From sequence record OP557969.1: a stretch of 64,000 nt of DNA. One strand, given 5' to 3'. Shown here one piece after another: positions 3 through 29,159 of this stretch. The stretch is from Escherichia phage ph0011. Both the position numbers and the translations under genes were made by a program. The stretch's first letter is position 1. Each line of letters starts with the position of its first letter. Below the pieces are notes generated by a model. The model was not told where the DNA came from and did not search any database. It was given only the letters and a program-made list of their open reading frames with translations.

Positions 3-212
3 CATTTCAAGTACCAAGATGAAGAGGCAGACAATTATCCTTTACCTAATTTAGTACAAATACAGGAAGAGGAATTATTCCAGTACAGTTTAGTATACGA
101 CATTGATATTTGCACGATGCCAGTATTAATTAATATACAAAAAGTGATGCTCGATATGTATGATAAGCTAATACAAGGTATGTCAGGGAGGATCATTGAA
201 ATCGATATATAA
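3..212 (+). CDS. FQ-family paralog, 5' end truncated by window edge
   Basis: Open frame from window start to TAA at 210-212; contains family core motif EEELFQYSLVYD. Confidence 0.5.
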   Translation, partial: HFKYQDEEADNYPLPNLVQIQEEELFQYSLVYDIDICTMPVLINIQKVMLDMYDKLIQGMSGRIIEIDI

Positions 213-408
213 GAATTTACCTAATGCATATATGTTGAAGTACAAAGAGTTTATTAAAGATGTATATGTAGATCCTTTCAATATAAAATTATCAGAGTTC
301 GATGTATTATTTTATCTAGGGACAATAGTACAGGACCAATACGTTAATAATCTAATAAGGTGTTTGAAAAAGGAGATACAATGCAGACCCAAATGTACAA
401 AAAAATAA
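196..408 (+). CDS. small hypothetical protein, family B (LFYLGT motif)
   Basis: ORF track; probable TTG start after GGGAGG at 185-190; motif LSEFDVLFYLGTIVQ shared with ORFs at 381, 11717, 11913. Confidence 0.4.
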   Translation: MKSIYKNLPNAYMLKYKEFIKDVYVDPFNIKLSEFDVLFYLGTIVQDQYVNNLIRCLKKEIQCRPKCTKK

Positions 409-644
409 ACCGTTATTTGTATGCATCAAAGTACAGGGATTTTTGTTTACAAGGAGGTGAGGACGATTTCGGTCTGAGGTTATCGGAATTTAATATGTTA
501 TTTTATCTTGGTACATCCGTACAAGAAGAAATGGTTCAGAAATTTCTCAATAACCTTGTACAAAAAATTAATATTCAAATTATGATGCATAAATTACAGA
601 ATGAGATAAATGAATATGAATCTAGAAATAGTTCAGGATCTTAA
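381..644 (+). CDS. small hypothetical protein, family B (LFYLGT motif)
   Basis: ATG at 381 preceded by AGGAG; motif LSEFNMLFYLGTSVQ. Confidence 0.55.
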   Translation: MQTQMYKKINRYLYASKYRDFCLQGGEDDFGLRLSEFNMLFYLGTSVQEEMVQKFLNNLVQKINIQIMMHKLQNEINEYESRNSSGS

Positions 645-1005
645 AAAAGTAATATTTCTTTTGAATACAAGAAGCTCTTTATATAAGGAGTTCAAAGATA
701 AGGATAGTTCTTTTAAACCAGTATGTATAGAATTCAATGATTTAATTACAGATGCATTGTTTGAATTTTCCGAGAAATATCAAGATACAGTGTTTGGTGT
801 TAGGAATGCTATTCATCCAATTACAGGCACAAGGAAGATAACGTTATCTCATTTTACATTTGACAATAAAGATTTATTCAGTTATAATCCCAGTACATCT
901 TTATATTTTATTCCAAAAGGAGACAAGAATAGTCCGATTCATTACGGATGGATTATATCTTATGTAGTGCAAGGAAAGGAGTATCCTATCAAATGGCACG
1001 ATTAG
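610..1005 (+). CDS. hypothetical protein
   Basis: ATG-initiated 131-aa ORF, same strand, no FQ motif. Confidence 0.5.
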   Translation: MNMNLEIVQDLKKVIFLLNTRSSLYKEFKDKDSSFKPVCIEFNDLITDALFEFSEKYQDTVFGVRNAIHPITGTRKITLSHFTFDNKDLFSYNPSTSLYFIPKGDKNSPIHYGWIISYVVQGKEYPIKWHD

Positions 1006-1145
1006 GACAGGAAGATTATAGTTTAAATATATTATTAAGAAATATTAATGCGGATTATTGTGTATGGGTTAAGAATCGAGACATGATGTATTATGATTTT
1101 TATTTAGATTATGCCATCAAACGCTTTTTAAGAGAAGAATATTAA
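993..1145 (+). CDS. small hypothetical protein
   Basis: In-frame ATG at 993 after AAGGAAAGGAG; short, uncertain. Confidence 0.3.
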   Translation: MARLGQEDYSLNILLRNINADYCVWVKNRDMMYYDFYLDYAIKRFLREEY

Positions 1146-1321
1146 TGAAAGTGGTTAATACAAAAGCAATAAATGATTTAAATGATTCTTTATTAGTAAG
1201 TATTAAGTTGTATTATAATATTCATTTAAAGGGTGGTATTAACGATTTTAGTTATTACTTAAGTGCAATATCACAAGAGCATTTAAATTATCAAGATCAT
1301 TTATTACATCCAAATCATTAA
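1145..1321 (+). CDS. small hypothetical protein (58 aa)
   Basis: Hand-translated ORF below the track cutoff; TAATG start-stop overlap with upstream ORF; fills an otherwise empty interval. Confidence 0.3.
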   Translation: MKVVNTKAINDLNDSLLVSIKLYYNIHLKGGINDFSYYLSAISQEHLNYQDHLLHPNH

Positions 1322-1329
1322 GGCAAATT

Positions 1330-1890
1330 ATGAATGAGATAGAGTTATTATCACACAAGATTAGTACAATAGCTACAGTACTGAACAACAAAAATAAAGT
1401 ACATAGTTCCTTTTTAAGAATTAATAAAGTTGGTAGTAGTTTATATTTGGAAGTAAAAGCGGGTTTTGCAGGACAGTACAATGATAAAATCAAAGAAGAA
1501 GTTAAGGGAAATGAAGATGCTTTCATTGAGGTTTGTGCAACAGTTGGTTCAAATCCAATTTCAGTATCACCGTTAATGCGAAATGAAAATTCAGAATTTG
1601 ATTCCAGTTTCGAAGGTTATTTGTGGTACAATTATGGTGATAATTATTTTATATATCAGAATTCCAAAACGAATTATAGTGAAGAAGGTATAAAATTCAT
1701 TGATCCTTACAATGAAGCAGAAGTATTTCAGAAATCCCTAATATACAATACAAATCAAATGAAGTATCTTATGTTGTTTAGTACAATGCATTTGAATCCA
1801 TTGAAAGATAATTTAAAATTTTTCATTCGTTTAGAATTAGTTGATATTACTTATGATCTTTTAATCCAAGGAAGTAGTTATGAAGTATAA
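1330..1890 (+). CDS. FQ-family paralog
   Basis: ATG ORF; core motif EAEVFQKSLIYN. Confidence 0.65.
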   Translation: MNEIELLSHKISTIATVLNNKNKVHSSFLRINKVGSSLYLEVKAGFAGQYNDKIKEEVKGNEDAFIEVCATVGSNPISVSPLMRNENSEFDSSFEGYLWYNYGDNYFIYQNSKTNYSEEGIKFIDPYNEAEVFQKSLIYNTNQMKYLMLFSTMHLNPLKDNLKFFIRLELVDITYDLLIQGSSYEV

Positions 1891-2194
1891 AATGATGTAT
1901 ACACCATCATTAGTATATGTAGAATTAGAATCAAATGATAATGGGTGGAATTTCATTAAACATATCGATACCAATACATGGTACATGGCTCACTTGGATA
2001 ATAATGTGGTATCAGACCATTTTATGGATTTCAATATCTTAGATGAAGATGAATTTTTCCAAATGCAATTGGTGCTTGACACAAATGGTTTTGATATGGT
2101 ATTATTAAAGAATATACAGAAAGCTGTTGATGAATTAATAGCTGAACATAATTTGAGCGAAATAAGGATTAGTTATGACCTCGAAGTACTGTGA
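1880..2194 (+). CDS. FQ-family paralog
   Basis: ATG ORF after AGGAAG; core motif EDEFFQMQLVLD. Confidence 0.6.
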   Translation: MKYKMMYTPSLVYVELESNDNGWNFIKHIDTNTWYMAHLDNNVVSDHFMDFNILDEDEFFQMQLVLDTNGFDMVLLKNIQKAVDELIAEHNLSEIRISYDLEVL

Positions 2195-2525
2195 GTTTGA
2201 AATTAATAAGTTAAGAGAATGGTTTTATAATATTGAAATTGAGGCCATTCCTTATCATACATATGAACAAAGTGATTTACAATGTATTGATATTAGGGAG
2301 TTGTACAAATATTATCAAAGTGCGTTAGAGATGCATAAATTATTTTTGAGTACGGATTTCTTTATGCAGTATAATTTTGAGGAATATAATAATTATAACT
2401 TAGTACAGAAATACGTAGTAGCAAAGTACATGTACATTCAAGGTATTAAAGGTTGTATTGAATTCAATACTGTTCTTGCTTTAGTTGAGGTAATTTTATG
2501 TACAGCATGTGCATATCTAATTTAG
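2175..2525 (+). CDS. hypothetical protein
   Basis: ATG ORF 116 aa; no family motif. Confidence 0.5.
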   Translation: MTSKYCEFEINKLREWFYNIEIEAIPYHTYEQSDLQCIDIRELYKYYQSALEMHKLFLSTDFFMQYNFEEYNNYNLVQKYVVAKYMYIQGIKGCIEFNTVLALVEVILCTACAYLI

Positions 2526-3016
2526 AGTTTAGTTTAGATGCAGCCTTTAAATTTGCACATAAGATAGAAACAATATATAGTTTTTTTAGTGAAGTTTATG
2601 AAGTTTGTGCTAAACGATATATCGATACAATAGACATTAGCAATAAGTTCGATGTATGGCACAAAACAATCCAAAGCAAAAAGCAGTGTGCAGCAGTTTT
2701 TAGTGTTTTATCATTTAATCCCAGCAATTGTTACCCAGAGAAGCATGAACGTTATCCCAATGACGACATGTGGTTTGTGTACAAAGAAGATGCTGATATG
2801 TCGTCATTTGAAGTTCCTGATAATTTTGATATCAGTGATTTAACAGAAGAGTGGTGGTTCCAGCAGAATTTAGTACATGATGATATTGATTTATTTTTCT
2901 ATATCGTGTTCAAAATACTTTATCACAACAATATAGTTAAAGATAGTGTATCGTTTTCATGTCTATATATTGATGAGTTGTTCGAAGATATCAAAAATCT
3001 CAAGCCTGTATCGTAA
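2498..3016 (+). CDS. FQ-family paralog
   Basis: ATG ORF; core motif EEWWFQQNLVHD. Confidence 0.65.
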   Translation: MYSMCISNLEFSLDAAFKFAHKIETIYSFFSEVYEVCAKRYIDTIDISNKFDVWHKTIQSKKQCAAVFSVLSFNPSNCYPEKHERYPNDDMWFVYKEDADMSSFEVPDNFDISDLTEEWWFQQNLVHDDIDLFFYIVFKILYHNNIVKDSVSFSCLYIDELFEDIKNLKPVS

Positions 3017-3031
3017 GATATGGGCTTTTTT
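3002..3031 (+). terminator. candidate weak intrinsic terminator
   Basis: AAGCC...GGCTT stem around stop codon followed by TTTTTT. Confidence 0.35.
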
Positions 3032-3033
3032 GT

Positions 3034-3062
3034 TTGACTCAAGTACAAATGAATGGTACAAT
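3034..3062 (+). promoter_or_regulatory. sigma70-like early promoter
   Basis: TTGACT-N17-TACAAT about 25 nt upstream of the ATG at 3088. Confidence 0.45.
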
Positions 3063-3087
3063 GTGAAATCATTTTAAGGAGAACCCT

Positions 3088-3636
3088 ATGGAAAATTTTC
3101 AAATACCACAAGATTACGATACAGCGAAAGAGATGGTACACAAGGTTCATTACATTTTTAATGAATTAATTATTGCAAATTCATCCTGTATGCAAATTGA
3201 GTTAAAGGGTATTAATAGTGAAGAAGTTTTTTTGGCTTCTCCAAGTTCAATTATTCCGTTGTATGGTATGGACCGTTTATGGTTCATGAGAGATGCACCA
3301 ATTGACAGGTACAAAATACAAAAAAAATCAGAGAATGATTTTCTTTATGATTATTTTAATATTTCATTACAAGCACACGATATAAGTACAATGAGTGCAG
3401 AGGAATATTTTCAGCACAGTACAGTGTATAGTCCAGAAGAAATCTTTGTTGTTATGCTTGTTGCAAAATTGAGTACTGTTGATTTTGGGACGTACCCAAA
3501 TAAATCATTCAAGATTATTATTCCTGCATTTGTTGATCTTTATGATTTCATTGTGCACAAGAAAGAAAGTACAGTGTACGATATGCAGCGTTCAAATATC
3601 AGTTTAATTGCAGTAAGTGCAGGGGAATTAAAATGA
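3088..3636 (+). CDS. FQ-family paralog
   Basis: ATG after AAGGAG; core motif AEEYFQHSTVYS. Confidence 0.7.
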   Translation: MENFQIPQDYDTAKEMVHKVHYIFNELIIANSSCMQIELKGINSEEVFLASPSSIIPLYGMDRLWFMRDAPIDRYKIQKKSENDFLYDYFNISLQAHDISTMSAEEYFQHSTVYSPEEIFVVMLVAKLSTVDFGTYPNKSFKIIIPAFVDLYDFIVHKKESTVYDMQRSNISLIAVSAGELK

Positions 3637-4241
3637 ACATAGACCAATTAATGAAGTACAGTAAAAGTACAGTTCCAGTACTAAGTAAAGTGTTAGATGC
3701 CTTCACTGCTAAGTACCCTGAAGGTTCAGAGTTAAATATTCCTTTTACTACACCAGGGATTGATGATACTTACATGGTACACATTGGTAGTTCAGGTATT
3801 GTTTTGAAGCAAAAGTACAGTGATAGTGAATATTATGGTTTGAAACTGGATAAAATTTCAGGAGAGAAGACACCTTTTGAGTTTTGGATTCCGAATAGTA
3901 TTGAATCATGGAATACACATATTAATAAGAGAGACGAAGGTAATATTTCTCTTGTAAATTATAAGGAAAAAAGATTTGACGTATTTTATTATTACAGTAC
4001 AGATACGTTTCCAGAAGAGATTTATTTAAATTCAGAGATGTATGAAGATATTGAATCATTTTTCTTTCAGTTATCATTGGTACATGATATCATGCCATTG
4101 CAAGCGTTCAGGGATGAAATAAATTTAGCGAAAGAGATTTCGGATATGTTACCTGAATTTAGTGTTCTTTATGGTAGTAGAGCTTTACCTGAAAATGTGT
4201 ATATAGAATTTATTTCTTGTGTTCAAGGATTGAATATATAA
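3633..4241 (+). CDS. FQ-family paralog
   Basis: ATGA overlap with upstream stop; core motif ESFFFQLSLVHD. Confidence 0.7.
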   Translation: MNIDQLMKYSKSTVPVLSKVLDAFTAKYPEGSELNIPFTTPGIDDTYMVHIGSSGIVLKQKYSDSEYYGLKLDKISGEKTPFEFWIPNSIESWNTHINKRDEGNISLVNYKEKRFDVFYYYSTDTFPEEIYLNSEMYEDIESFFFQLSLVHDIMPLQAFRDEINLAKEISDMLPEFSVLYGSRALPENVYIEFISCVQGLNI

Positions 4242-4242
4242 T

Positions 4243-4437
4243 ATGAACGAAGATGATATCAAAAAAAGGCATACGAAGTTTGAACTGCTCCCTGACGAAA
4301 TCCACATTGATATAGTTAATTTTAACATCAAAGCGTCCTTGCATCCTATATCACAAGATGATTTTGACAACAGAGTGCTTAACATAGTGGTGATTTTGTG
4401 CTATAATCATTTCAGTGAATATTTTAACAAAAGATGA
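4243..4437 (+). CDS. small hypothetical protein
   Basis: ATG ORF 64 aa directly after upstream stop. Confidence 0.45.
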   Translation: MNEDDIKKRHTKFELLPDEIHIDIVNFNIKASLHPISQDDFDNRVLNIVVILCYNHFSEYFNKR

Positions 4438-4444
4438 GGTACAT

Positions 4445-4966
4445 ATGTATCAGCACACGTACAATACATCATATGAGTATGGGTACAGCATTTTGAAGAT
4501 TATCAAAGCGTTAGAGGGTGGATTGCTTAGTCATAAGTACACCAGAGTAGGTGACAATTGGTTCAGAAATGATGATGATGAGTTCAGAAGTCATAAAATC
4601 GTTTACAGTAATAATTACAGTGCTAATTATCTTCAGGATGTGGTTATGTGCTTTGAATACGTGTTACAGTTCAGGGGTTCCATCAGACCAGAGTTAAGAG
4701 AACACATGTACATTCGATACCTACCAATGCTTGAGGATGAGAAATCAATATTCAATTCAGTACACCACAGAGTACGAGATAGAACATTCAGGAATATTTT
4801 GGAAGATGAAGCTGCCTATTTTCAGCGATCATTGATTGATGCTCCTGATGTGTTACAGATGCAGAATTTGTATAATGTATTAGATGCGAACATCGATACT
4901 GATATCTTTTTTTCCTTAAGTGATTATGAAACATGTTTGGAAGATTTAAAGGAAATAGGATTATGA
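4445..4966 (+). CDS. FQ-family paralog
   Basis: In-frame ATG at 4445 after GAGG; core motif EAAYFQRSLIDA. Confidence 0.65.
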   Translation: MYQHTYNTSYEYGYSILKIIKALEGGLLSHKYTRVGDNWFRNDDDEFRSHKIVYSNNYSANYLQDVVMCFEYVLQFRGSIRPELREHMYIRYLPMLEDEKSIFNSVHHRVRDRTFRNILEDEAAYFQRSLIDAPDVLQMQNLYNVLDANIDTDIFFSLSDYETCLEDLKEIGL

Positions 4967-5307
4967 GTGGATTTACAGTATATATAGTAAACGTCAGTAC
5001 AGATGGTAGTTTAATTGAATTTGATGTAGTTGATGACGATGATAATGCATATGGTATTAAGGTGCAAGACAATGTTGTGCAGTTCAGTACAAGAACAAAT
5101 TACGAAAATCCAGTTCCTGTTCCTAATTTCATAGAAGACGAAGCTGTACGATTCCAATACGAAACTGCCTTTGACAATATAGCGATGCATATTATTATGC
5201 AACACAGTTTAGTTCAATTAGTTCCTTTATTTAGACAAAATGTATATGTACATGAATTGTCGATTAATAACGTTCAAAGTTCCGTTTTGTTCGGCACAAA
5301 TATGTAA
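4963..5307 (+). CDS. FQ-family paralog (divergent)
   Basis: ATG at 4963 overlapping upstream TGA (ATGA); motif EAVRFQYETAF. Confidence 0.55.
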   Translation: MSGFTVYIVNVSTDGSLIEFDVVDDDDNAYGIKVQDNVVQFSTRTNYENPVPVPNFIEDEAVRFQYETAFDNIAMHIIMQHSLVQLVPLFRQNVYVHELSINNVQSSVLFGTNM

Positions 5308-5316
5308 GGAAGGATA

Positions 5317-5859
5317 ATGAGTTTATTAGATACCATAGAAAAAGACAGAAGTGCCATTAAGAGATTAAAAAATCTGGTTCTGTGTATTGTGAACAACGTT
5401 GAAAAGTTTGAAGTCCAAGGAAGAATTGGTGATATTTCACATACAGGAATAAAATCCCTGAAGTCAGATTTATTAATTCATAAGGAAGATAAATTATTAT
5501 TTGTATTGAGTTCAGATTTATTGGTTGCAAGTAATGGTTTCAATTCGGTATCAACACAAGATGGTAGTACTGGATTATATCTATCACAGGGTGTACAGAC
5601 GAATGAACATAAGTGTTTTAGTTCAAGAGTACAGAATCCCTTTAAGTTTAATACAGAACAAGCTACAGAGCTTTTTGAGGCTTCAGAAGAGATGTTATTT
5701 CAGTACAAAATGGTCTATACAGATTTTGAAATACGATGCCTATACGCTGTTAAGCATTATGTACAAGAGTTCGAAGATTTAAATTATCTTTTAGTTCGAA
5801 CGAATACGAAGAACATTGACATATTAGAAGATTACATTTCAACAGTTGTTAGTGTGTAA
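5317..5859 (+). CDS. FQ-family paralog
   Basis: ATG after GGAAGGA; core motif SEEMLFQYKMVY. Confidence 0.65.
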   Translation: MSLLDTIEKDRSAIKRLKNLVLCIVNNVEKFEVQGRIGDISHTGIKSLKSDLLIHKEDKLLFVLSSDLLVASNGFNSVSTQDGSTGLYLSQGVQTNEHKCFSSRVQNPFKFNTEQATELFEASEEMLFQYKMVYTDFEIRCLYAVKHYVQEFEDLNYLLVRTNTKNIDILEDYISTVVSV

Positions 5860-6034
5860 TGGGATGTTGCTTATGAAGGAGTTATTTGATGAACAGTTCA
5901 ATGTATTAATGGATAATATTCTTTTTTATAGCCTTGGTAGTAAACGAGGAAATCGTGCTTACAATATAGATTACATATTAACTGTGTTGAGTTCACAGTA
6001 CACATATGCTGTGCAGAGGACATATTATGAATAG
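5846..6034 (+). CDS. small hypothetical protein (start uncertain)
   Basis: ORF track only; track start is TTG, in-frame ATG at 5873; weak. Confidence 0.25.
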   Translation: MLVCNGMLLMKELFDEQFNVLMDNILFYSLGSKRGNRAYNIDYILTVLSSQYTYAVQRTYYE

Positions 6035-6212
6035 TTATAGTGGTGTTGCTAAGGAGAAGTTAAATTGTAGTTTAGATTTTGGCTTAAATGATTTTCTTAC
6101 GTGCACAATGTTCAGGAATGATGATTATGAACAATCCGTAATTTCGTTGTATAGATATTTTGAAATAATTTACACAAGATACCTTAGAAGGTTAGAGGGA
6201 TTGGAATTATGA
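6027..6212 (+). CDS. small hypothetical protein
   Basis: In-frame ATG at 6027 after AGAGGA. Confidence 0.4.
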   Translation: MNSYSGVAKEKLNCSLDFGLNDFLTCTMFRNDDYEQSVISLYRYFEIIYTRYLRRLEGLEL

Positions 6213-6427
6213 TTTATGAACAAAAAGTACCAAGTGGTTATAGTGTTGATGGTTTTGAATTCATGATGGATTTGGTTTTAAAGAATACATTAGTAGTACA
6301 CCGTGCATTACCGGACCATGTAGATAGTGCGGTTCAACGAATAATGAATGTATACGAGATGACGAGTCGAAAGCTTTGTGCAATGAAAAGGATTGAAGAA
6401 ATCAAGCGTTCTAGGATGAATAATTAG
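6209..6427 (+). CDS. small hypothetical protein
   Basis: ATGA overlap with upstream stop; 72 aa. Confidence 0.45.
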   Translation: MIYEQKVPSGYSVDGFEFMMDLVLKNTLVVHRALPDHVDSAVQRIMNVYEMTSRKLCAMKRIEEIKRSRMNN

Positions 6428-6567
6428 AGACGTTTCGTATGATGTATTCAAACGTACAATAAAACAATACTATATAACTTTTTATAATTGATATTTTTTA
6501 AAAAATACACAATCACAACGTGCTCCTTTTATTGGAATTTACCTTATTAATTATAGTTGAGGGGAAG

Positions 6568-6945
6568 ATGGAAATGAAATATAAAGATTTTCATATAGGG
6601 ACATGGATGTACACTGGTGAGTTTATTACGTGCTGTAATTTATACAAGCGTGATTTAAACTACTCAAGGGAGAAGGTTATAAAGTTCGCAGATTCACAAT
6701 TTTATTTTATGGAGTTAAGTACTGGAATTCGTGTTAAATCAACCGTTATGCTGGATTATACAGTTCTGGATGAGGCACAATTATTTCAGGAGTCATTAGT
6801 ATTTGATAAGAAGTACAACTGTACATTAGAAGAGATAGTTGAAATCCAGCGTAGGATCAAATTTATTCACAAGGATTGTATCGATAAATGGTGTAAAACT
6901 GGTGAAACTAATTTTAGTAATTATTTCAATCTAGGGGAAGAGTGA
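6568..6945 (+). CDS. FQ-family paralog (short form)
   Basis: ATG at 6568 after GAGGGGAAG; core DEAQLFQESLVFDKKYNCTLEE. Confidence 0.7.
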   Translation: MEMKYKDFHIGTWMYTGEFITCCNLYKRDLNYSREKVIKFADSQFYFMELSTGIRVKSTVMLDYTVLDEAQLFQESLVFDKKYNCTLEEIVEIQRRIKFIHKDCIDKWCKTGETNFSNYFNLGEE

Positions 6946-7301
6946 TGGAATTTGATTTTGTAATATCAGTACATTCTTTCAAGAATAGTTTTCAGTACTT
7001 TTGTAATTTAAACAAAGGTGATTTAATGCACAGTGCAAATGAGTATATTCATTACACTGCTGGTAAATTTACATTTATTGATTACGATTCATTACAGTAT
7101 CCACATCAGGATATGCCGGACTTTACATTAATGGATGAGGCCGAACTATTCCAAGCTGCATTAGTATTCGATAAGAAGTACTTGTGTACACTAGAAGAAG
7201 TAATTGCCATACAAAATGAAATAAAAGAGTATGCTGCTTTGAATAAATCCAATGTAAGTATTAATCAAGAATACAAATTCAATATAGGAATTACAGAATG
7301 A
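6942..7301 (+). CDS. FQ-family paralog (short form)
   Basis: ATGA overlap; core DEAELFQAALVFDKKYLCTLEE. Confidence 0.7.
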   Translation: MMEFDFVISVHSFKNSFQYFCNLNKGDLMHSANEYIHYTAGKFTFIDYDSLQYPHQDMPDFTLMDEAELFQAALVFDKKYLCTLEEVIAIQNEIKEYAALNKSNVSINQEYKFNIGITE

Positions 7302-7663: not shown

Positions 7664-7664
7664 T

Positions 7665-8188: not shown

Positions 8189-8189
8189 T

Positions 8190-9097: not shown

Positions 9098-9099
9098 TA

Positions 9100-18344: not shown

Positions 18345-18373
18345 TTTACATAAGCATTCAGGTGTGTTATACT
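18345..18373 (+). promoter_or_regulatory. candidate sigma70-like promoter
   Basis: TTTACA-N17-TATACT upstream of the ATG at 18401. Confidence 0.4.
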
Positions 18374-18400
18374 TGATTTTAAATAAAATTGGAGGAATAT

Positions 18401-21612: not shown

Positions 21613-21624
21613 CGGAGAAACTAC

Positions 21625-22176
21625 ATGAATCAAAGTCATGATCTTTTTAAATTATGTGCATCCAAAGATGTTGAAGGATGGACAGATAAAGTCAATACAA
21701 TCATCAATAGATTCCGAGTCTTTAGTGCTCGTGCACGAAGTGATGGTTCTATGAATTTCAAATATTCAATGACAATTGATGGTGTTGTAATTCATGTAGA
21801 TGAAGAAAAACTATCTATTAATCTACATGATTCATGTGTATTTGCTATTCATCAAAAGATGGGTTCAGGATGGGGTTGCAACAACATGAACTCAAAAGCA
21901 TTCTTTTGGGTTGGTCATTACAATACAGTTCTTGATCCTTCCATCAAATCCAATCTATTAGTTAATAATATCGTTTATGATTTATCGTATCCAGAAGAGT
22001 CACATTTTCAATTGAGTACATTACATAATTTAGTCAAATATGAAGATTGTGTCAAAGCATTAGAATTATGTCATTCAATTGATCTTAAAGATAAGTTGAT
22101 ACAAATTTACCCGTTGTTCTTCCATGAAGAAGTACAATGCACACTTGAACATATTTTATATGGGTACGATAAATGA
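21625..22176 (+). CDS. FQ-family paralog
   Basis: ATG after GGAG; core PEESHFQLSTLHN. Confidence 0.65.
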   Translation: MNQSHDLFKLCASKDVEGWTDKVNTIINRFRVFSARARSDGSMNFKYSMTIDGVVIHVDEEKLSINLHDSCVFAIHQKMGSGWGCNNMNSKAFFWVGHYNTVLDPSIKSNLLVNNIVYDLSYPEESHFQLSTLHNLVKYEDCVKALELCHSIDLKDKLIQIYPLFFHEEVQCTLEHILYGYDK

Positions 22177-22775
22177 GAAAAAGTTACCAAGAAGCTATTG
22201 ACCTAATTCGAGAAGTTATTAAGGTTGCACCAGGTGCAATAGCATTCAAGAAGTCTCTATATAAGAAATATGGTCCCATGTCAAGTATGTGCTGTCAAAA
22301 GAAACGTAGTAAATTCACTACGCAGTACTGGCATGACTCTATTATCTTGAGTAATGAACATCAGCGTATTTTAACAATCGAATCAGTAGATAATCAATAT
22401 GGGGAAGGATTGATTTGTATTCCTGACTATGATGAAATTAATTTCAATTGTGGGGATTATGAGACAACATTATTATTACACGAGGGTTATCCTGAAGGTG
22501 ATGTAATGGCAGAGTATAATCCAAAAACAAAAATACTGAAACGTGGTATACAGTTCAAAATCGATAACAAAGATGATGTGGAAGCTGCACTAATGCAACT
22601 GAGTACAAGCGAACCTATCTCTATTGATGTAGAAGAGTTATGGGGAATCATTTCAGTACTTAATGAGTGTTATAAAATTAAATCATTGCATAAGTACTCT
22701 ATAATTTTACATACTAATTGTGCAATGATAAAATGTAAGAACATACAAGAGATGGTGGTTCCAGATGAACTTTAA
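22173..22775 (+). CDS. FQ-family paralog (divergent, F replaced by M)
   Basis: ATGA overlap; motif VEAALMQLSTSEP. Confidence 0.6.
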   Translation: MRKSYQEAIDLIREVIKVAPGAIAFKKSLYKKYGPMSSMCCQKKRSKFTTQYWHDSIILSNEHQRILTIESVDNQYGEGLICIPDYDEINFNCGDYETTLLLHEGYPEGDVMAEYNPKTKILKRGIQFKIDNKDDVEAALMQLSTSEPISIDVEELWGIISVLNECYKIKSLHKYSIILHTNCAMIKCKNIQEMVVPDEL

Positions 22776-23349
22776 AGAAATAGAAAGTAAAATTAAGTAC
22801 TTCAAAGATATCAAAAAACTTTGGGAAAAGTATAAAATTGTTTATCAATTCCAAGATGATGATACTGTTCAAACCATTGATATTAGTATTCGTGTGAAGT
22901 TCAAGAATGGTAGTTATGGTGAAGTTAAATTGAATTCTATGGGTGTATATCTTAGAGACTATGATGGTTCCACTCTTGCACAATTTGACTTCACACCTGA
23001 CCCTGATGATATGTTACTGAGTGAAATCAATGCGTATGACCTTGAGATGTTTGGTGGGAAACCTTTATTATTCCGCTTATCAGATGAATGGGATGAGGTT
23101 TACTACACATACAAAGATGGAGTGATTCGAGACGTGAATGATGAGGTTGTAAATGATATGGAAGAACGTCTATTCCAAGAATCATGTGTGTCATCTGAGT
23201 CATATACATACCAATACCTACTTGACATGTTCGATTTGTATAGTAAAATAGATTCAGAAATGGGTACATTGGGTATTCATTATCTCACAATAAATGACTA
23301 TGCTCAACTCGAAACCGCAGTGAAAGCATTATCTAAAGTTCTGAAATAG
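22765..23349 (+). CDS. FQ-family paralog
   Basis: ATG ORF; core MEERLFQESCVSS. Confidence 0.65.
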   Translation: MNFKEIESKIKYFKDIKKLWEKYKIVYQFQDDDTVQTIDISIRVKFKNGSYGEVKLNSMGVYLRDYDGSTLAQFDFTPDPDDMLLSEINAYDLEMFGGKPLLFRLSDEWDEVYYTYKDGVIRDVNDEVVNDMEERLFQESCVSSESYTYQYLLDMFDLYSKIDSEMGTLGIHYLTINDYAQLETAVKALSKVLK

Positions 23350-23358
23350 GAATGAATT

Positions 23359-23772
23359 ATGAAACTGTATCATGCGAGTACTGTAAAAATTGATAACTTT
23401 TATATCCCGTATGGTGGCCTTCATATGGGAGGTAAACACAGTGCACTTGAAGCTGCATTACGCAAGCTAAGAAGCCCACTGAACGTTGTTGCCGCTGATA
23501 CAGTATACTTGCATACTTTAGAAGTTGATGTTGACAACGTGCTTCTATGGGAGGATTTGGGTAGTGATGATGAGTGGCGTTCACTAATTGAACATTGTAA
23601 TTCTAAAGGTTACGATGCTGTTCAATACACAAATGAATACGAGCCGGATAATGTTCCTAGTTATATGATTTGGGATACGTCTAAGGTTCGCATTGTCGAA
23701 GTTGATGCTATGCATATGGATGATGCAGAAATGATCATCGAAGATTTCCTTGATGAATATGAAGGTGTATAA
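23359..23772 (+). CDS. hypothetical protein (non-family gene within the array)
   Basis: ATG ORF 137 aa; no FQ motif. Confidence 0.6.
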   Translation: MKLYHASTVKIDNFYIPYGGLHMGGKHSALEAALRKLRSPLNVVAADTVYLHTLEVDVDNVLLWEDLGSDDEWRSLIEHCNSKGYDAVQYTNEYEPDNVPSYMIWDTSKVRIVEVDAMHMDDAEMIIEDFLDEYEGV

Positions 23773-24290
23773 TGATTGAACCTATGACAGTACTAGCACG
23801 TACTAAATTATTATTGAAGATTGGTGAGATATTAACTGATATTTTGTACAGTGAGATTGATATACATGAATTATGCATTATACAACCATGGGAATTAACC
23901 AAATTCTCTGCGTTCTATCGTTTATCATATAAAGGGGAAACAGTTCTGGACTGGAACCCCAAAGCCAGATTTATGGAGTATGCAGCTTTATATGGAACAT
24001 GTGGTGGAATAACAAATGATTTTAAAGAAATTAAAACTCAAACAGCGTCACATGAATTTAATGATTTATTATATCCAGAATTTAAGTTAACAGAAGAATC
24101 ATTATTCCAGCACTCATTAATTTTAAAAGATCTTAATGATTTAGAGTACTACAAAGAATTAGTAGATATTTTTATGAATACACGACTTTCAAAAGATATT
24201 GTGATATTCTGGTATACAGAGCATGTTACGGAGGAATTGCTTACTGAATTTCTTCTAAATATGACAGCTATAAAGGAGAAGTTATGTTAG
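23772..24290 (+). CDS. FQ-family paralog
   Basis: TAATG overlap; core TEESLFQHSLILK. Confidence 0.65.
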   Translation: MIEPMTVLARTKLLLKIGEILTDILYSEIDIHELCIIQPWELTKFSAFYRLSYKGETVLDWNPKARFMEYAALYGTCGGITNDFKEIKTQTASHEFNDLLYPEFKLTEESLFQHSLILKDLNDLEYYKELVDIFMNTRLSKDIVIFWYTEHVTEELLTEFLLNMTAIKEKLC

Positions 24291-24757
24291 ATATTTTAGG
24301 AAACATCGATACTGCAAATTATTTTATCCAAGACGCACTGTTTAATACACTACAAAAAGGTTTAGAAGTTCGTCACAATGTATACCAAGGTGATGGTTAT
24401 TTCGTTGATATTATTGAGGCACGAAAGAATACGTTTAATCTTAACGTTACGACGCTTGGAAGACAGAACATTGCACGAATTTTAGTAAGTAAAGATGAAA
24501 TTGTATTAAGATACAGTGCTAAGTTTATGCTGACTTACAAGAAAAAAACTGACATGTTCAGTACTAATTTATTTGATGAGCCATTTGACCTTGAAGATAT
24601 TGAAGCTACTTTCTTCACTCAAAGTACTATGGTAAAATACACTGATGTTCAATTTTCAGCAGACGTTATGTCTGAAACATTACAAATGATCAAGGTATTA
24701 TTTTATGCTTTTGAGCAATTTAGAGAAGAAAGAAATAAGGTTAACAACCACAGATGA
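24284..24757 (+). CDS. FQ-family paralog (divergent)
   Basis: ATG after AAGGAGAAG; motif IEATFFTQSTMVK. Confidence 0.6.
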   Translation: MLDILGNIDTANYFIQDALFNTLQKGLEVRHNVYQGDGYFVDIIEARKNTFNLNVTTLGRQNIARILVSKDEIVLRYSAKFMLTYKKKTDMFSTNLFDEPFDLEDIEATFFTQSTMVKYTDVQFSADVMSETLQMIKVLFYAFEQFREERNKVNNHR

Positions 24758-25118
24758 ACTAATAGAGGCGATTACTAAGGATTCAAAATACCATAAAGGG
24801 ATTCGTCTATACTTTATAGATACTGGCTCAATGGAAGGTACATACATTTATGGCTCACAATCTTTGTCTTATGTTGTAATACCAAATAAAAATGTAAAAA
24901 TCTTTTTAGGTTCAAGTAAAAAAGCGTTCTTGACAGTTAATGACAACAGTGTTATTATGAATTCCTTGGGTCATGACAAGGTAGAAATTGATCTAAACAC
25001 ATTAGAAGAAATGGATTTTTTTCAGTACGAGTGTTTAGGCGTTGACTTACATGGTATCAGTAGTGATATGATAAAATCATTAATTAAATATTTCAAGGGT
25101 GTTTATAAATGTATCTAA
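24705..25118 (+). CDS. FQ-family paralog (start unresolved)
   Basis: Core LEEMDFFQYECLG; only in-frame ATG lies 53 nt inside the upstream gene with no RBS. Confidence 0.5.
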   Translation: MLLSNLEKKEIRLTTTDELIEAITKDSKYHKGIRLYFIDTGSMEGTYIYGSQSLSYVVIPNKNVKIFLGSSKKAFLTVNDNSVIMNSLGHDKVEIDLNTLEEMDFFQYECLGVDLHGISSDMIKSLIKYFKGVYKCI

Positions 25119-25606
25119 CAAAATCGATGAAAAATTCATTTGATAAGATCAAGAGTGTTCTTGGTGGTGAGCATATTACTAGTGTGACTCAAACGGCTGA
25201 CCAAATTCAATGCAGTTCAAATGATTATACTGTAATTCTAGGTTTACATAGTCTACGTTTGACAATAGTAAATAATATTGACAACACTGCAATTGTAATA
25301 ACACCATGCCATATCAAAAATGAAAATGGTGTATATCTTCATCATATGGGAACAGTATTTCATATTTTTAATACAAATGAAAATATTGTTAAAGAATACA
25401 ATACACTTAATATTGATTCAGGTGAATTATTTCAAATGAGCACGTTGTACTCATGTAATTTTACAGATACTTCACGTATTTTACCATTCTTCTTAGAAAT
25501 TATTAAGAAAATGGAAAATTTAAAACGTGAATACAATAAAGAAATGGTTCCTGAAGCTATATTAAATATTACTAATGCTATAGAGAAGTATAATTCAGTG
25601 ACTTAA
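25109..25606 (+). CDS. FQ-family paralog
   Basis: ATG ORF; core DSGELFQMSTLYS. Confidence 0.65.
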   Translation: MYLTKSMKNSFDKIKSVLGGEHITSVTQTADQIQCSSNDYTVILGLHSLRLTIVNNIDNTAIVITPCHIKNENGVYLHHMGTVFHIFNTNENIVKEYNTLNIDSGELFQMSTLYSCNFTDTSRILPFFLEIIKKMENLKREYNKEMVPEAILNITNAIEKYNSVT

Positions 25607-25648
25607 TAAAAACGCACATGGAGTGCATGAGAAGATCAAGGATAGATC

Positions 25649-26122
25649 ATGGAGATTAAAACCGTTGAAAATGGGGAAATTGATGACATTTTAGAGTTGG
25701 ATGCCTTCAAAGTTCATGATATAATGTTCAATGTGAAAGACATTATTCAATGTCTGTTTTTGTGCAGCAAGACTATGCATGACTTTTTTCACAACCCAAA
25801 TACAAATGTTTTTATACTAACAATCAGTACTGAAAGCTCGTTCATCATGGGTATGCCTATGAGTACGAATGAACAGTATATTGATTGTGTTATTCGCAAT
25901 AACGATAGTATTACACCTCAATCTGAAGTACGTAAAAAGAAAAACACTTACACAATCAAAGATGATAAAATTATGATGTGCTGTAGTAAGGGGTTTATAT
26001 TAGATAATTTTATTGTCAAAGATAGTTATCATGACTTTAAAGTTTCCGAAAACCAATCTAATGTAGTTCTTTATGCAAGTGACATAGAAAGTCTAACAGT
26101 AAAAGATCCCAGTTTGGAGTAA
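25649..26122 (+). CDS. hypothetical protein
   Basis: ATG ORF 157 aa; no family motif. Confidence 0.55.
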   Translation: MEIKTVENGEIDDILELDAFKVHDIMFNVKDIIQCLFLCSKTMHDFFHNPNTNVFILTISTESSFIMGMPMSTNEQYIDCVIRNNDSITPQSEVRKKKNTYTIKDDKIMMCCSKGFILDNFIVKDSYHDFKVSENQSNVVLYASDIESLTVKDPSLE

Positions 26123-26234
26123 TTATGTCGAAGAAAGTTAATAATTTCGTACAGAAACACATGAATGAGTTTAATAAACCTCAAACACATGTGGATCGTA
26201 AAAAAGAAATGAAAAATGGTAAAGTAAAACATAA

Positions 26235-26262
26235 GTCGAGATTTATTCTCGACTAATTTTTT
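26235..26262 (+). terminator. candidate rho-independent terminator
   Basis: GTCGAG-ATTTATT-CTCGAC hairpin followed by TAATTTTTT. Confidence 0.45.
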
Positions 26263-26285
26263 GTCCAAATTTATGGAGATTGTAT

Positions 26286-27134
26286 ATGTTAGATAGTACA
26301 GAATTTCGCAACTTCAAAAAGTATTCAGTACTTGAACATATCAACGAATTTCTGAATTCTCCAACACCATTTGGTATCAGTACATCAGATTCATACGATG
26401 GATATAGAATCTTCACATGTAATGACTTTCAAATTTCTGTCAAAAAAGGTACTTCAAAAGAAGTTGCAATTCGTGATGTAGTACTGTATAGCGATTCTTC
26501 CATTTCTTACTGTCATGATGTGAACAATTTTGAATCTCTTTCAACACCTAATTGTTCATACTACAAATCCCATGACACGATGATGTATAAAGAACAACAT
26601 ATCAATGGCGTTTCGTTCTATAAAACTAGCAGTGATAAATCATATACATCTAGAGATGATTTTGGAAAATACACATGTACTATGTACACGGATAATGAAA
26701 AAACAAATTACACTCATTCATTCGAGTCCAAATTCAAAGAAAGTGAAGTTTCAAATATCACTATACAAGAACAGGTATCAGAAGGCATTGTTTATCGTAG
26801 CACTGCATTCTTTCGCATGAAAGATATTGAATCTGGTAGGCCAATGATGTATAATATTGATATATACATGCAAGGTGAAATATCTGAAGTAGTGATTAGT
26901 GTTGGATATCGTACTAGCTTCACATTTACGATAAACTCACCAGATGCATCATTGGTACACCTCTTTGACAAATTGTATACATTCCAAGTTGAGTTTTGTC
27001 TCAATTCAAACGAATATCAAATATTCGATATATTAAAAAGTAATATCATTAATAAATTAGAATATTACTATAAGTTGGGTGGGAAGATGAGTATAGTTAA
27101 TACAATGATACATAATATAAAAGAAACATTATAA
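26286..27134 (+). CDS. hypothetical protein
   Basis: ATG at 26286 after GGAG; 282 aa. Confidence 0.6.
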   Translation: MLDSTEFRNFKKYSVLEHINEFLNSPTPFGISTSDSYDGYRIFTCNDFQISVKKGTSKEVAIRDVVLYSDSSISYCHDVNNFESLSTPNCSYYKSHDTMMYKEQHINGVSFYKTSSDKSYTSRDDFGKYTCTMYTDNEKTNYTHSFESKFKESEVSNITIQEQVSEGIVYRSTAFFRMKDIESGRPMMYNIDIYMQGEISEVVISVGYRTSFTFTINSPDASLVHLFDKLYTFQVEFCLNSNEYQIFDILKSNIINKLEYYYKLGGKMSIVNTMIHNIKETL

Positions 27135-27150
27135 ATCTGGAGGATTTGGT

Positions 27151-27444
27151 ATGGATACTAAATTCAAAATTATTTTTAAAACGAAGCCGTATATACCATA
27201 TACTGCCGAACGTTTTATACCACCTGGTGCAGAGGAAATTATTCACCAAGATGGTACAAAGTTATATCTAGTTCCATGTTCATATGAACGTGCAGTAGAA
27301 ATGCTACTCATGAATTCTAAACTATGCACAAATAAGTATATTAGTTACCTATATAATGAACATATCTTAGAGTTCAATGATGAAAATATGTTTATTCTTG
27401 CAATTGAAGATTTTAATAAATGGTTTGAATTTATTAAAGTCTAA
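27151..27444 (+). CDS. hypothetical protein
   Basis: ATG after GGAGGA; 97 aa. Confidence 0.6.
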   Translation: MDTKFKIIFKTKPYIPYTAERFIPPGAEEIIHQDGTKLYLVPCSYERAVEMLLMNSKLCTNKYISYLYNEHILEFNDENMFILAIEDFNKWFEFIKV

Positions 27445-27457
27445 TGAAAAAAATAAT

Positions 27458-27486
27458 GTGGACAAATTAAATCCCTGTGATATAAT
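27458..27486 (+). promoter_or_regulatory. sigma70-like early promoter with extended -10 (TGTGATATAAT)
   Basis: GTGGACA -35-like, about 16-17 nt spacer, TGaTATAAT; intergenic upstream of 27517. Confidence 0.5.
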
Positions 27487-27516
27487 GTTCGCATCTTTTT
27501 GATAACGGAGATATAG

Positions 27517-27903
27517 ATGAATACAAGTTCAATCCTAAAAGCAATTGGTGGTGTTTTACTCATTGAGGTGAAAGGTGAACCAAAACTATGCTGTTTAGAA
27601 GATATGAAGAACACAAAACACTTCAGTACTGGTCAGATTTTCAATGCAATTCGCGTTCTGAATGACAAATCCATTGCTGATTATGGTAAAGTTTGGCCTG
27701 TATATCAAAATTCTGATGGTGAGATCAGTTCTGATTGGAAAACAATTGAAGAAGTTCGACAAAATTGTGATTGTGATTGGGACTTTATCGTTGAAGTATG
27801 TGACCAACTACAAGAAGATGTACCAGAAATCGTAGAACGAAAGGAAGTTCTGGCAAATCTAGAAAAATTCCGTAATGGAACACTCCAATACGACACAATC
27901 TAA
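27517..27903 (+). CDS. hypothetical protein
   Basis: ATG after GGAG; 128 aa. Confidence 0.6.
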   Translation: MNTSSILKAIGGVLLIEVKGEPKLCCLEDMKNTKHFSTGQIFNAIRVLNDKSIADYGKVWPVYQNSDGEISSDWKTIEEVRQNCDCDWDFIVEVCDQLQEDVPEIVERKEVLANLEKFRNGTLQYDTI

Positions 27904-27952
27904 TCTGCTTATTTAAAAATAGCTAGTTAACATTATATAAAAGGAATTTAAA

Positions 27953-28258
27953 ATGGAAGACAATGGAATGAAATTTGATATGTTTGAGGGTGTGCCTGAG
28001 TTTGATTTTAACAAACTTGAAGAAGGTGAAGCCACTGAACTTGTCAGTGTTACGCTTAAAGCTGATACTAAAAAGAAATATTCACCATCAGTTCGTGCAC
28101 GCTCAAAAGAAGAATATGAAACATTTATTGAGAGTATTCATTATGAAACATTCTATCACAAAGATGGAACTCCATATGAAGTACGTGTAACAGTTCTGAA
28201 GCCTGAAGTAAACCCAATGGAAAATCTACGTCCTGTTTACTGCTGGGCAAGCCACTAA
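27953..28258 (+). CDS. hypothetical protein
   Basis: ATG after AAGGA; 101 aa. Confidence 0.6.
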   Translation: MEDNGMKFDMFEGVPEFDFNKLEEGEATELVSVTLKADTKKKYSPSVRARSKEEYETFIESIHYETFYHKDGTPYEVRVTVLKPEVNPMENLRPVYCWASH

Positions 28259-28267
28259 TAAACCATA

Positions 28268-28298
28268 GGACGGGATATAATATCTCGTCCTTTTTTTT
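28268..28298 (+). terminator. rho-independent terminator
   Basis: GGACGGGAT...ATCTCGTCC hairpin followed by T8, just after the stop at 28258. Confidence 0.55.
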
Positions 28299-28310
28299 GT
28301 CTGGAGATAT

Positions 28311-29159
28311 ATGAAACTTTATCTAATCGTTGACTACAGTAAGGGTTATTATGACTACGCAGAAGAATCTGAAGGGTATTGCTCGTCTACTAATGTCAAT
28401 GTACGCACCAGTAGTACACATGAGCATGAATCTATTACAAATCTAAAAGATTTTATTGCATATCGAGCATTTGAAAAGAATTTCTGTCGTAGTAGATATT
28501 CGAAGTTTGAGTACCCGTTAATTGATGTTCCTGATGAATTGATGTTCCAGTTAATGCTCACTGGAGTACAAGATTATGATTACATTGCGTACAATCACAT
28601 TACTAAGAAAATTTATATCGGTACGTCAACGCATGACATTTCTATGTATGCATCATGCCCCGATGATCGAATGAATGATAGAAAATCATACTATAGTGGT
28701 TCAGTTGGTTCAAATGTTCCATCAAATAAAAATTTATTCTTTGAGTACGAGTTTGATAATCATCGAGGGAAAACAGACCGAGAAGATTATTGTACTGAAA
28801 TTAATAGTTCAAATGGATATGAAGAAGTGAAAGAAGCAATAATGCCATATATCCTAGACAAGTACTACAAAGATTTTCAGTACTGTAGTAATTTTCTAAT
28901 CCGAAATTCTATCAAAATCGGTCGTCAAAGCACTGCATTCTCTAAGTACTACAATGATTCCCCTGTTGCTGAAAATGAATACTGTAATGTTCTCTCAATC
29001 CCACGTGAAGATATGGTATTCATGTTCACATCTTTCATTGAAGATGATGAGTTGTATGTAAAAAACAAGCACAGGTTCATGCTAAGTAATATTGAGGTTA
29101 TGAGAAGCTTAAGTGCAGATATATTAACGAATTTCACTGAAAAAACAGAATACAACTGA
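28311..29159 (+). CDS. FQ-family-related protein (atypical, long C-terminal extension)
   Basis: ATG after GGAG; motif PDELMFQLMLTG near residue 75 of 282. Confidence 0.6.
   Translation: MKLYLIVDYSKGYYDYAEESEGYCSSTNVNVRTSSTHEHESITNLKDFIAYRAFEKNFCRSRYSKFEYPLIDVPDELMFQLMLTGVQDYDYIAYNHITKKIYIGTSTHDISMYASCPDDRMNDRKSYYSGSVGSNVPSNKNLFFEYEFDNHRGKTDREDYCTEINSSNGYEEVKEAIMPYILDKYYKDFQYCSNFLIRNSIKIGRQSTAFSKYYNDSPVAENEYCNVLSIPREDMVFMFTSFIEDDELYVKNKHRFMLSNIEVMRSLSADILTNFTEKTEYN

Follow-up and report, generated by a model that had tools for sequence, protein, structure and literature searches.

The stretch studied here, 64,000 nt of Escherichia phage ph0011 (record OP557969.1; the window), carries on its + strand a tandem array of small paralogous genes that we call the FQ family. 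Their products share an acidic stretch followed by Phe-Gln, a variable residue, Ser or Thr and a hydrophobic residue, placed 32–75 residues before the C-terminus in 40 + strand open reading frames (ORFs) between 1330 and 25606. In a logo of 299 sequences the motif reads [ST](63%)-E(78%)-E(68%)-x-[YL]-F(100%)-Q(100%)-x-S(84%)-[LT]-[VIL]-[YH]-[DN], and the core consensus [ST]-E-E-x-[YL]-F-Q-x-S-[LT]-[VIL] lies a median of 51 residues from the C-terminus. The first-pass annotation, made from the letters alone, had called the Phe-Gln pair invariant; this holds throughout the logo, but 18389-18964 has F-N at the aligned position. The genes are tightly packed: overlaps occur at 42 of the 55 gene junctions and are of the 4-nt ATGA type at 13, although our use of the first possible start codon for each ORF probably inflates some of the long overlaps.

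The motif is far more frequent in the array than chance allows. The strict pattern [DE]x(1-3)FQx[ST] occurred in 31 of the 49 array ORFs of at least 100 amino acids (aa) and in 2 of 42 in the remaining window, and composition-preserving shuffles averaged 0.6 and never exceeded 4 against the 31 observed. All-vs-all phmmer comparison joined 23 ORFs. An iterated hidden Markov model (HMM) built from the window converged at 35 members, 34 of them within 1330-25606 and one at 38841-39530, and matched none of 835 shuffled sequences; 21031-21612 entered its set at E 1.6e-5 once filters were off. An external HMM, made from 263 sequences that all come from outside the window, re-found 33 of the 35 at E < 1e-3 and added 21625-22176, 4933-5307 and 11203-11739, as well as 38266-38844 at E 1.1e-3 and, as a borderline case, 24705-25118. 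In hhalign, where ten negative controls all scored E 0.07 or worse, the probability was 85% for 21031-21612 and 76% for 21625-22176. The shuffles, the profile searches and the validation across genomes rule out a chance motif, and the ORFs are true paralogues, as had been proposed. The shared motif, co-orientation, size range and overlapping packing first described for them are all present. We hold with very high confidence that the FQ family is real.

By these sequence criteria the window holds 37 solid and about six probable members (Table 1). Of these 43, 41 fall inside the interval first assigned to the array (3-29159) and two lie at 38266-39530; no orthologue of 38266-38844 was found when sought in Escherichia phage fEgEco12. 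An earlier count of at least 45 genes in 3-29159 was thus too high for the window, but about 45 per genome is fair, since fEgEco12 has 44. The interval itself had been drawn too wide, with no supported member in 3-1329 or 26123-29159. Membership is not supported for the ORFs before 1330, which lack the motif, or for those at 26280-27134 and 28311-29159 (~283 aa), whose 'FQ' is a chance occurrence (hhalign E 0.59 and 0.068). Among eight motif-less ORFs interleaved with the members, the best hhalign E-values were 0.001 (16688) and 0.018 (20113), compared with 0.07 for the best negative control.

Table 1. Features of the window. E-values of FQ members come from the external HMM unless stated otherwise.
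Feature	Coordinates	Strand	Evidence and remarks
FQ array	1330-25606	+	56 packed ORFs through 26122: 35 solid, 5 probable, 8 interleaved motif-less; cut at window 5' edge
FQ member, 186 aa (YNEAEVFQKSLI)	1330-1890	+	E 7.3e-13
FQ member, short form, 104 aa	1880-2194	+	E 8.2e-7
FQ member, 172 aa	2498-3016	+	E 4e-15
FQ member, 182 aa	3088-3636	+	E 5.2e-14
FQ member, 202 aa	3633-4241	+	window HMM E 4.4e-18; external HMM E 1.4e-3
FQ member, 183 aa	4415-4966	+	E 8.3e-14
Probable FQ member, 124 aa (EDEAVRFQYETA)	4933-5307	+	E 3.2e-4; hhalign E 0.009
FQ member, 180 aa	5317-5859	+	E 7e-9
Young sub-cluster, four short-form members	6520-6945, 6942-7301, 7298-7663, 7593-8006	+	E 7.7e-11 to 1.6e-8
Young sub-cluster, four long-form members	8190-8660, 8657-9097, 9100-9567, 9567-10010	+	E 3e-21 to 9.8e-27
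FQ member, short form, 104 aa	10007-10321	+	E 1.9e-5
FQ member, 147 aa	10321-10764	+	E 2.3e-18
FQ member, 151 aa (STEEGYFQGSTL)	10761-11216	+	E 7.4e-21
Probable FQ member, 178 aa (AFDEQCFQLSCT)	11203-11739	+	E 3.3e-4
FQ member, 198 aa	12052-12648	+	E 7.2e-12
FQ member, short form, 119 aa	13247-13606	+	E 4.8e-11
FQ member, short form, 111 aa	13596-13931	+	E 9.8e-10
FQ member, 178 aa	13939-14475	+	E 2.9e-20
FQ member, 157 aa	14535-15008	+	E 1.6e-19
FQ member, 156 aa	15005-15475	+	E 3.1e-22; tblastn matches reach RaK2, K64-1, Muenster
FQ member, short form, 120 aa	15465-15827	+	E 1.4e-11
FQ member, 137 aa	15811-16224	+	E 2.5e-12
FQ member, 159 aa	16212-16691	+	E 1.5e-19
FQ member, 190 aa	17230-17802	+	E 4.4e-14; top match RaK2 ORF 22607-23215 (59.7 bits)
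FQ member, 172 aa	17795-18313	+	E 2.2e-10
Probable member, F-N for F-Q	18389-18964	+	LFNANLI aligned to IFQRSLL; BLASTP E 5e-7 to 18964-19548; phmmer link
FQ member, 194 aa	18964-19548	+	E 1.6e-6
FQ member, 192 aa	19535-20113	+	E 3e-9
Probable FQ member, 169 aa (NLEEIEFQNNTL)	20538-21047	+	motif in register; hhalign E 0.0017 vs best negative control 0.07
FQ member, 193 aa	21031-21612	+	window HMM E 1.6e-5; hhalign probability 85%
FQ member, 183 aa (YPEESHFQLSTL)	21625-22176	+	E 3.2e-6; hhalign probability 76%
FQ member, 194 aa	22765-23349	+	window HMM E 1.1e-19; external HMM only E 0.032
FQ member, 172 aa	23772-24290	+	E 1.8e-6
Probable FQ member, 137 aa (LEEMDFFQYECL)	24705-25118	+	E 0.0096; motif
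FQ member, 165 aa	25109-25606	+	E 8.3e-4; top match RaK2 ORF 30742-31239 (52 bits)
Probable outlying member, 192 aa	38266-38844	+	directly 5' of RNA ligase gene; phmmer link to 21031-21612; E 1.1e-3
Outlying FQ member, 229 aa (phrog_32531)	38841-39530	+	E 2e-8
Interleaved ORFs without motif	2175-2525, 12639-13241, 16688-17233, 20113-20541, 22173-22775, 23359-23772, 24284-24757, 25649-26122		
Intrinsic-terminator-like hairpin (3002-3027), then sigma-70-like promoter	3002-3062	+	TTGACT-N17-TACAAT, TG extension
Sigma-70-like promoter	4379-4407	+	11/12 matches, TG-extended; before gene 4415
Sigma-70-like promoter	14472-14501	+	TTGACC-N18-TATAAT, contains exact 11-mer TGTGATATAAT; 59-bp gap before gene 14535
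Terminator-like hairpin (18312-18331), then promoter	18312-18373	+	TTTACA-N17-TATACT, TG extension; before gene 18389
Dam methyltransferase	30403-30927		3' of array
T4-type RNA ligase 1 (Rnl1)	39792-40934		3' of array
PNK/phosphatase	42033-42965		3' of array
ClpP-like gene	52302-52997		PF00574 E 1.6e-41; exact TGTGATATAAT promoter element precedes at 52257
Second ClpP-like gene	58330-58935		PF00574 E 5.5e-5
ORF labelled 'protease' in relatives	59192-59857		
Sir2-family protein	60077-60829		3' of array
Nudt16-like Nudix hydrolase	60826-61377		3' of array

DNA searches assign the window to a RaK2-like jumbo myovirus of the Asteriusvirus type. Positions 1-20000 align with Escherichia phages CMSTMSU, fEgEco12 and Turkey3 at ~88-89% DNA identity over 96-98% of the query, and with 121Q, PBECO4 and G17 at ~83%; 40000-64000 also matches this phage group. 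G+C content runs from 28 to 39%, and the + strand carries nearly all genes.

The window-built HMM found 37 members in positions 1-50000 of fEgEco12 (44 over 1-98000). In Klebsiella phage RaK2 it found 27 within 40 kb, and a metagenome contig had 24 on a piece of 14.6 kb. FQ was in register in all the RaK2 and fEgEco12 (1-50000) members and in 23 of the 24 on the contig. The fEgEco12 array starts at 27270, ~2 kb before the point aligned to window position 1, and has five extra short members immediately 5' of that point; the array is therefore cut off at the 5' edge of the window. The direct terminal repeats of fEgEco12 measure 20,993 bp (PMC13070987). A location of the array inside the repeat was considered and rejected, as the repeat spans 1-20993 and the array begins ~6 kb further inward.

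When 1.84 billion cluster representatives were searched exhaustively with a profile, only 147 proteins scored at E ≤ 1e-3, all of 55-229 aa. Together with 28 further matches from a word search, 172 of these 175 carry the acidic-FQ motif. Named sources were Asteriusvirus phages or ~350-kb 'E. coli' contigs, and tblastn matched 44 phage records (31 Escherichia, 9 Klebsiella and 4 Salmonella). On these matches the family, whose distribution the first-pass annotation had proposed to map by profile searching, appears to be specific to RaK2-like jumbo phages. Many members are deposited as 'Escherichia coli' proteins on ~350-kb contigs that are whole jumbo-phage genomes within bacterial assemblies; lytic phage genomes in such assemblies are a subject of recent reports (PMC12768965).

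Scans of all 35 window-HMM members against Pfam-A, NCBIfam and PADLOC gave no credible match. The best matches involved single members at E 0.0025 to 0.09, each to a different family, and a PDB sequence-profile search returned zero matches at E ≤ 10. These empty searches bear out the original suspicion that the family is undescribed and matches no characterised domain. In PHROGs, the 35 members match 25 different phrogs at E < 1e-5, all of 'unknown function': 9317, 12674, 13866 and 15629 were each matched by 6-9 members (E down to 4.6e-61), and at least 21 more by a single member. PHROGs holds the same proteins split as separate families, which are here unified into one superfamily with a common motif and predicted fold. 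Our literature search found no description of the FQ family. About 10% of RaK2 proteins are paralogues (PMC3622015), and 22 paralogous ORFs are listed for CBB (PMC5259590). The jumbo-phage survey of Iyer et al. (2021) does not feature the FQ family; it describes an expansion of ~35 zinc ribbons in Bacillus phage G as 'unprecedented' (PMC7824862).

AlphaFold2 was run on the long form 9567-10007 (147 aa) with 35 paralogues as the alignment and gave a predicted local distance difference test (pLDDT) score of 93.1 and a predicted template modelling (pTM) score of 0.87. The model contains an N-terminal helix, seven strands, helices at 90-94, 100-106 (E-E-Y-Y-F-Q-N) and 112-126, a strand and a C-terminal helix. 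The short form 6942-7298 (119 aa, 71-sequence alignment) reached a pLDDT of 84.9 and a pTM of 0.81, with five strands, a helix at 66-76 holding FQ, a helix at 84-100 and a last strand. Around the motif, the long-form pLDDT is 95-98 and the motif is a well-ordered helix. According to these models, a single alpha+beta scaffold would underlie all members: an antiparallel sheet of five to seven strands lies against a helical hairpin, and the long forms have an additional N-terminal helix; the motif would form the first hairpin helix and the following turn. Foldseek comparison of AlphaFold models, another check proposed at the outset, was made against BFVD and matched no characterised family, only uncharacterised proteins of 121Q, SP27, RaK2, Serratia BF, GAP32 and Yersinia fHe-Yen9-03. 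These weak fold-level matches suggest that the family extends to phages of Serratia, Cronobacter and Yersinia. The predicted fold, modelled with confidence, appears to be without a solved analogue.

In the profile, information is highest at three Tyr, one Asp, one Glu, F, Q, L and I. The three Tyr lie on successive strands, L/I follow the motif, and the motif block is the sole strongly conserved stretch. Ser or Thr followed by acidic residues fits a helix N-terminus, while the aromatic and aliphatic residues on the strands and the helix suit a sheet-helix core. On our reading, F-Q, the three strand Tyr and L/I would be a structural keystone rather than an active site, with the Gln possibly buried and hydrogen-bonded to Tyr hydroxyls. 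Specificity would lie in the diverged surfaces, the rest of the surface being at 10-20% identity. A resemblance to a beta-clamp-binding or PIP-like motif (Q-x-S-L-[IVL]) was set aside: the aromatic residue is not spaced as in a PIP box, and this segment sits in the folded core.

The same residues could be read as the active or ligand site of an enzyme or small-molecule binder, for example one that sequesters a nucleotide signal. The invariant polar Gln, the frequent Glu-Glu and Ser and the three conserved Tyr are compatible with this, and small size and a novel fold also characterise the phage 'sponge' proteins to which immune signalling nucleotides bind. However, Glu (78% and 68%) and Ser (84%) are not invariant, one member has N for Q, some 45 copies at 10-20% identity are unlike an enzyme family, and neither profile nor fold searches matched any enzyme. 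We consider such a function very unlikely.

The family had also been described as rapidly diversifying, which our comparisons do not support. Measured against fEgEco12 orthologues, the ratio of nonsynonymous to synonymous substitution rates (dN/dS) of FQ members was 0.07-0.50 (median 0.28) and lay well below 1 in all 34 measurable pairs. For the ligase, PNK, Rnl1, ClpP, Sir2 and PhoH genes it was 0.04-0.09, and for overlapping shadow ORFs it exceeded 1. FQ members are real genes and are less tightly constrained than core enzymes. The best BLAST match to a paralogue within the window is mostly only 25-35 bits, except in the sub-clusters 6520-8006 (42-45% mutual identity, 74-93 bits) and 8190-10010 (84-111 bits). 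For 18 of 37 members, the RaK2 match beats any paralogue in the window, and in the 3' half the positional offset to RaK2 is constant (17230 to 22607, 21031 to 26506, 23772 to 29287, 25109 to 30742). Given this closeness to RaK2 and the constant offset, most of the expansion is older than the divergence of the Escherichia phage genus from that of Klebsiella phages. Purifying selection, anciently diverged paralogues and RaK2 orthologues in conserved 3'-half order suggest that the expansion is old, has been retained and is subfunctionalised, and that only two of its sub-clusters are young. Copy number nonetheless varies among close relatives, as fEgEco12 has extra members at 31094, 31590 and 32220 without counterpart here.

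That variation would fit a filler without function: duplicated DNA for which a large capsid has room, its ORFs left open by chance or drift. The dN/dS values, set against those of the shadow ORFs, the orthologues and gene order kept between genera, and the confidently predicted fold all speak against it, and we give this idea almost no credence. Synonymous divergence (dS) from fEgEco12 is uneven between 1-20000 and 24000-64000: it is mostly 0.1-0.5 across most of the array, but 0.4-1.9 in many downstream genes and at the 3' end of the array. The pattern suggests that lineages recently exchanged the array by recombination, or that constraint on synonymous sites differs.

Several promoter-like elements lie within the array (Table 1). 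The exact 11-mer TGTGATATAAT, an extended -10 element, occurs four times in the window (14491, 27476, 36844 and 52257), always intergenic and on the + strand, where 0.2 occurrences would be expected. The looser TGNTAYAAT occurs 22 times on the + and 5 times on the - strand (~9.4 expected per strand). From its sequence, TGTGATATAAT looks like the core of the phage's early promoter, and the set of elements points to early-type transcription by host RNA polymerase in at least five units. The literature search found no RNA-seq for this phage clade. FQ products are predicted to be soluble, mostly acidic proteins of 100-230 aa, with a median pI of 4.9 and a negative grand average of hydropathy. An acidic DNA mimic of the Ocr/ArdA type was considered and rejected because this acidity is modest.

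If the products were instead virion, internal-head or assembly proteins, they might be cargo cut at the Gln or parts of 'hairy' fibres. RaK2-like virions are complex, and the window does contain protease genes. E-x-x-[YL]-F-Q-x-S superficially resembles a 3C/TEV-type site, E-x-x-Y-x-Q-(G/S). The pattern fits only in part, with a variable residue after Q and the S one position later. We set a TEV/3C-like cleavage site aside, since the motif is predicted to be helical and of buried type (pLDDT 95-98) rather than an exposed linker, and the only proteases seen in the window are ClpP-like, not 3C-like. The promoters, moreover, are of the sigma-70 early type. In the virion proteome of one relative, phAPEC6 (a single data set of 62 proteins), none of the proteins falls between gp348 and gp548, where the FQ member gp442c lies, and none maps to the array. 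We therefore judge a virion role to have scarcely any chance of being right; it is disfavoured by the proteome data, as the filler reading is by the selection data.

Beyond the array, 40000-64000 encodes PhoH, DNA ligase, RNA ligase, PNK, dCMP deaminase, Nudix and Sir2. Dam, Rnl1, PNK, Sir2 and Nudix genes together form a set of the kind typically devoted to counter-defence and RNA repair. Both ClpP-like genes and the 'protease' ORF sit amid nucleotide-metabolism genes, distant from any head-gene cluster visible in the window. No tRNA gene or Rfam match was found in the 64 kb. In the 325-bp non-coding gap at 29160-29484, a strong hairpin with a T-run (GGTGACAGCAGAATATGTTGTCACCTTTTTT) comes immediately after a -10-like TATGATATAAT, and the next ~250 nt contain no ORF. 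The gap has no Rfam match; it could be a small RNA or leader.

Two further paralogous groups were seen. One, of 63-94 aa with the core F..L.YLGT..Q, has four members in the window (196-408, 360-644, 11717-11935 and 11913-12104), one of which matches 19 ORFs in a tightly packed array at 21091-27280 of fEgEco12, between the terminal repeat and the FQ array. The other is a trio of ~90 aa linked by phmmer (32672-32941, 33517-33807 and 33788-34066). A 494-aa ORF without a Pfam match (35297-36781) is missing from fEgEco12, where its flanking genes adjoin, and is a strain-specific insertion. The sole long minus-strand ORF, 55357-58029, encodes 890 aa with nine Big_2 Ig-like repeats (PF02368, E 9e-136). 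It lies in a G+C-richer patch (0.39), and the matching fEgEco12 site is only ~280 bp, indicating an insertion, possibly of a Hoc-like or fibre decoration gene.

Taken together, the data lead us to favour, at about even confidence, a multigene family specific to this clade, whose products are early, cytoplasmic, non-virion proteins on a common scaffold and in which each paralogue binds a different host or defence protein. Host sigma-70 RNA polymerase would transcribe the array as at least five units, starting at several promoters of the extended -10 kind, and its genes would be translationally coupled; the proteins would therefore be made early, in the cytoplasm, and would not be packaged. They would act as a battery of binding proteins, each recognising and then neutralising or redirecting its own host protein, whether a target for host takeover or part of a defence. 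Old tandem duplications would have produced the battery, and selection would have retained it. Early timing, the structural role of FQ and a binding or inhibitor function are what we infer, and the array may serve anti-defence or host takeover. Its setting, with extended -10 sigma-70 promoters, absence from a relative's virion proteome and the Dam/Rnl1/PNK/Sir2/Nudix set, fits an early accessory or host-directed role.

Several points weigh against this reading. The case for the promoters is one of consensus matching, and the acidity of the products barely exceeds the phage background (pI 4.9 vs 5.3). The Tyr/Tyr/Tyr/Phe/Gln/Asp/Glu set could form a shared ligand pocket instead of a core. Orthologue retention across E. 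coli and Klebsiella phages counts against a strain-specific defence arms race, although it fits conserved host targets equally well. Our literature search yielded no partner, phenotype or expression datum for any FQ member.

Conservation of only one short block over ~300 sequences, with all else variable, could also mean that the FQ helix and Tyr set dock one common partner (the phage ClpP-like proteases, a host AAA+ unfoldase or RNA polymerase) while the variable sheet picks substrates. F-box and BTB adaptor families in large eukaryotic viruses offer a parallel, and the non-structural region of the window encodes two ClpP-like proteins. On the other hand, the conserved residues are mostly aromatic or aliphatic and occupy alternate strand positions and the helix, as expected for a buried core, and FQ is not known to match ClpP- or ClpX-docking motifs. 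An adaptor of this kind seems to us unlikely. Slightly less probable is a programmable targeting system, in which all paralogues dock on one shared machine, plausibly the phage ClpP-like pair with a host unfoldase, or host RNA polymerase, and some 45 sheets each capture a different host or defence protein. If true, this would be the bacterial-virus counterpart of the giant-virus F-box/BTB expansions, on a fold without a solved structure.

Families of host-directed binders, our preferred reading, have parallels in other viruses. In the poxvirus Bcl-2-like and African swine fever virus MGF360/505 families, one fold has been duplicated near the genome end until identity is almost lost, each copy antagonising a different host factor. 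The FQ array is likewise near-terminal, beginning ~6 kb inward of the left 21-kb repeat in fEgEco12. However, there is no sequence or fold relationship, Bcl-2 being all-alpha and the FQ family alpha+beta, and the host is bacterial. T4 early genes, the SPO1 host-takeover module and the T5 pre-early region are clusters of small co-oriented genes near a genome end with strong host-type promoters. The FQ block resembles them in its co-oriented small genes and host-type promoters (here identified by consensus), but their genes are unrelated to one another, whereas one paralogous family dominates here. The zinc ribbons of phage G (PMC7824862) are likewise a large expansion of small-domain paralogues in a jumbo phage; the FQ family differs in having another fold, no Zn ligands, one tight tandem array, ~45 copies and a presence in several genera.

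Tandem strings of diverged, small, cytoplasmic paralogues also recall the orphan immunity genes of polymorphic toxin systems, such as the SUKH/Imm genes and the EsaG genes of the type VII secretion system. Each FQ paralogue might accordingly neutralise a different toxin, such as an abortive-infection or toxin-antitoxin effector, a colicin or contact-dependent toxin, or an effector of a competing phage. Such strings are typical of immunity islands (for example EsaG strings, PMC9484751), FQ members are small, acidic and cytoplasmic, and the nearby RNA-repair genes Rnl1 and PNK counter anticodon nucleases. But the block contains no toxin genes, and its orthologues are stable between genera, unlike the fast turnover of immunity islands. 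We regard this explanation as rather improbable.

These phages devote ~25 kb, about 7% of a 350-380 kb genome, to ~45 copies of one undescribed fold, an investment conserved among phages of Escherichia, Salmonella and Klebsiella. The array is among the largest paralogue arrays reported for a phage and at least equals the phage G zinc-ribbon expansion. Large viruses are known to expand multigene families in particular lineages; new here are the FQ family itself, the scale of its expansion and its conservation in several genera. The family has been hidden in current resources, scattered over at least 25 PHROGs groups and listed as hypothetical genes in genome papers. If its members are host-directed binders, they would be a ready library of ~45 natural inhibitors or adaptors directed at proteins or defences of enterobacteria, in a group of RaK2-like phages that is under development for therapy. 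The shared scaffold with its short keystone motif would give a compact, evolvable binding domain.

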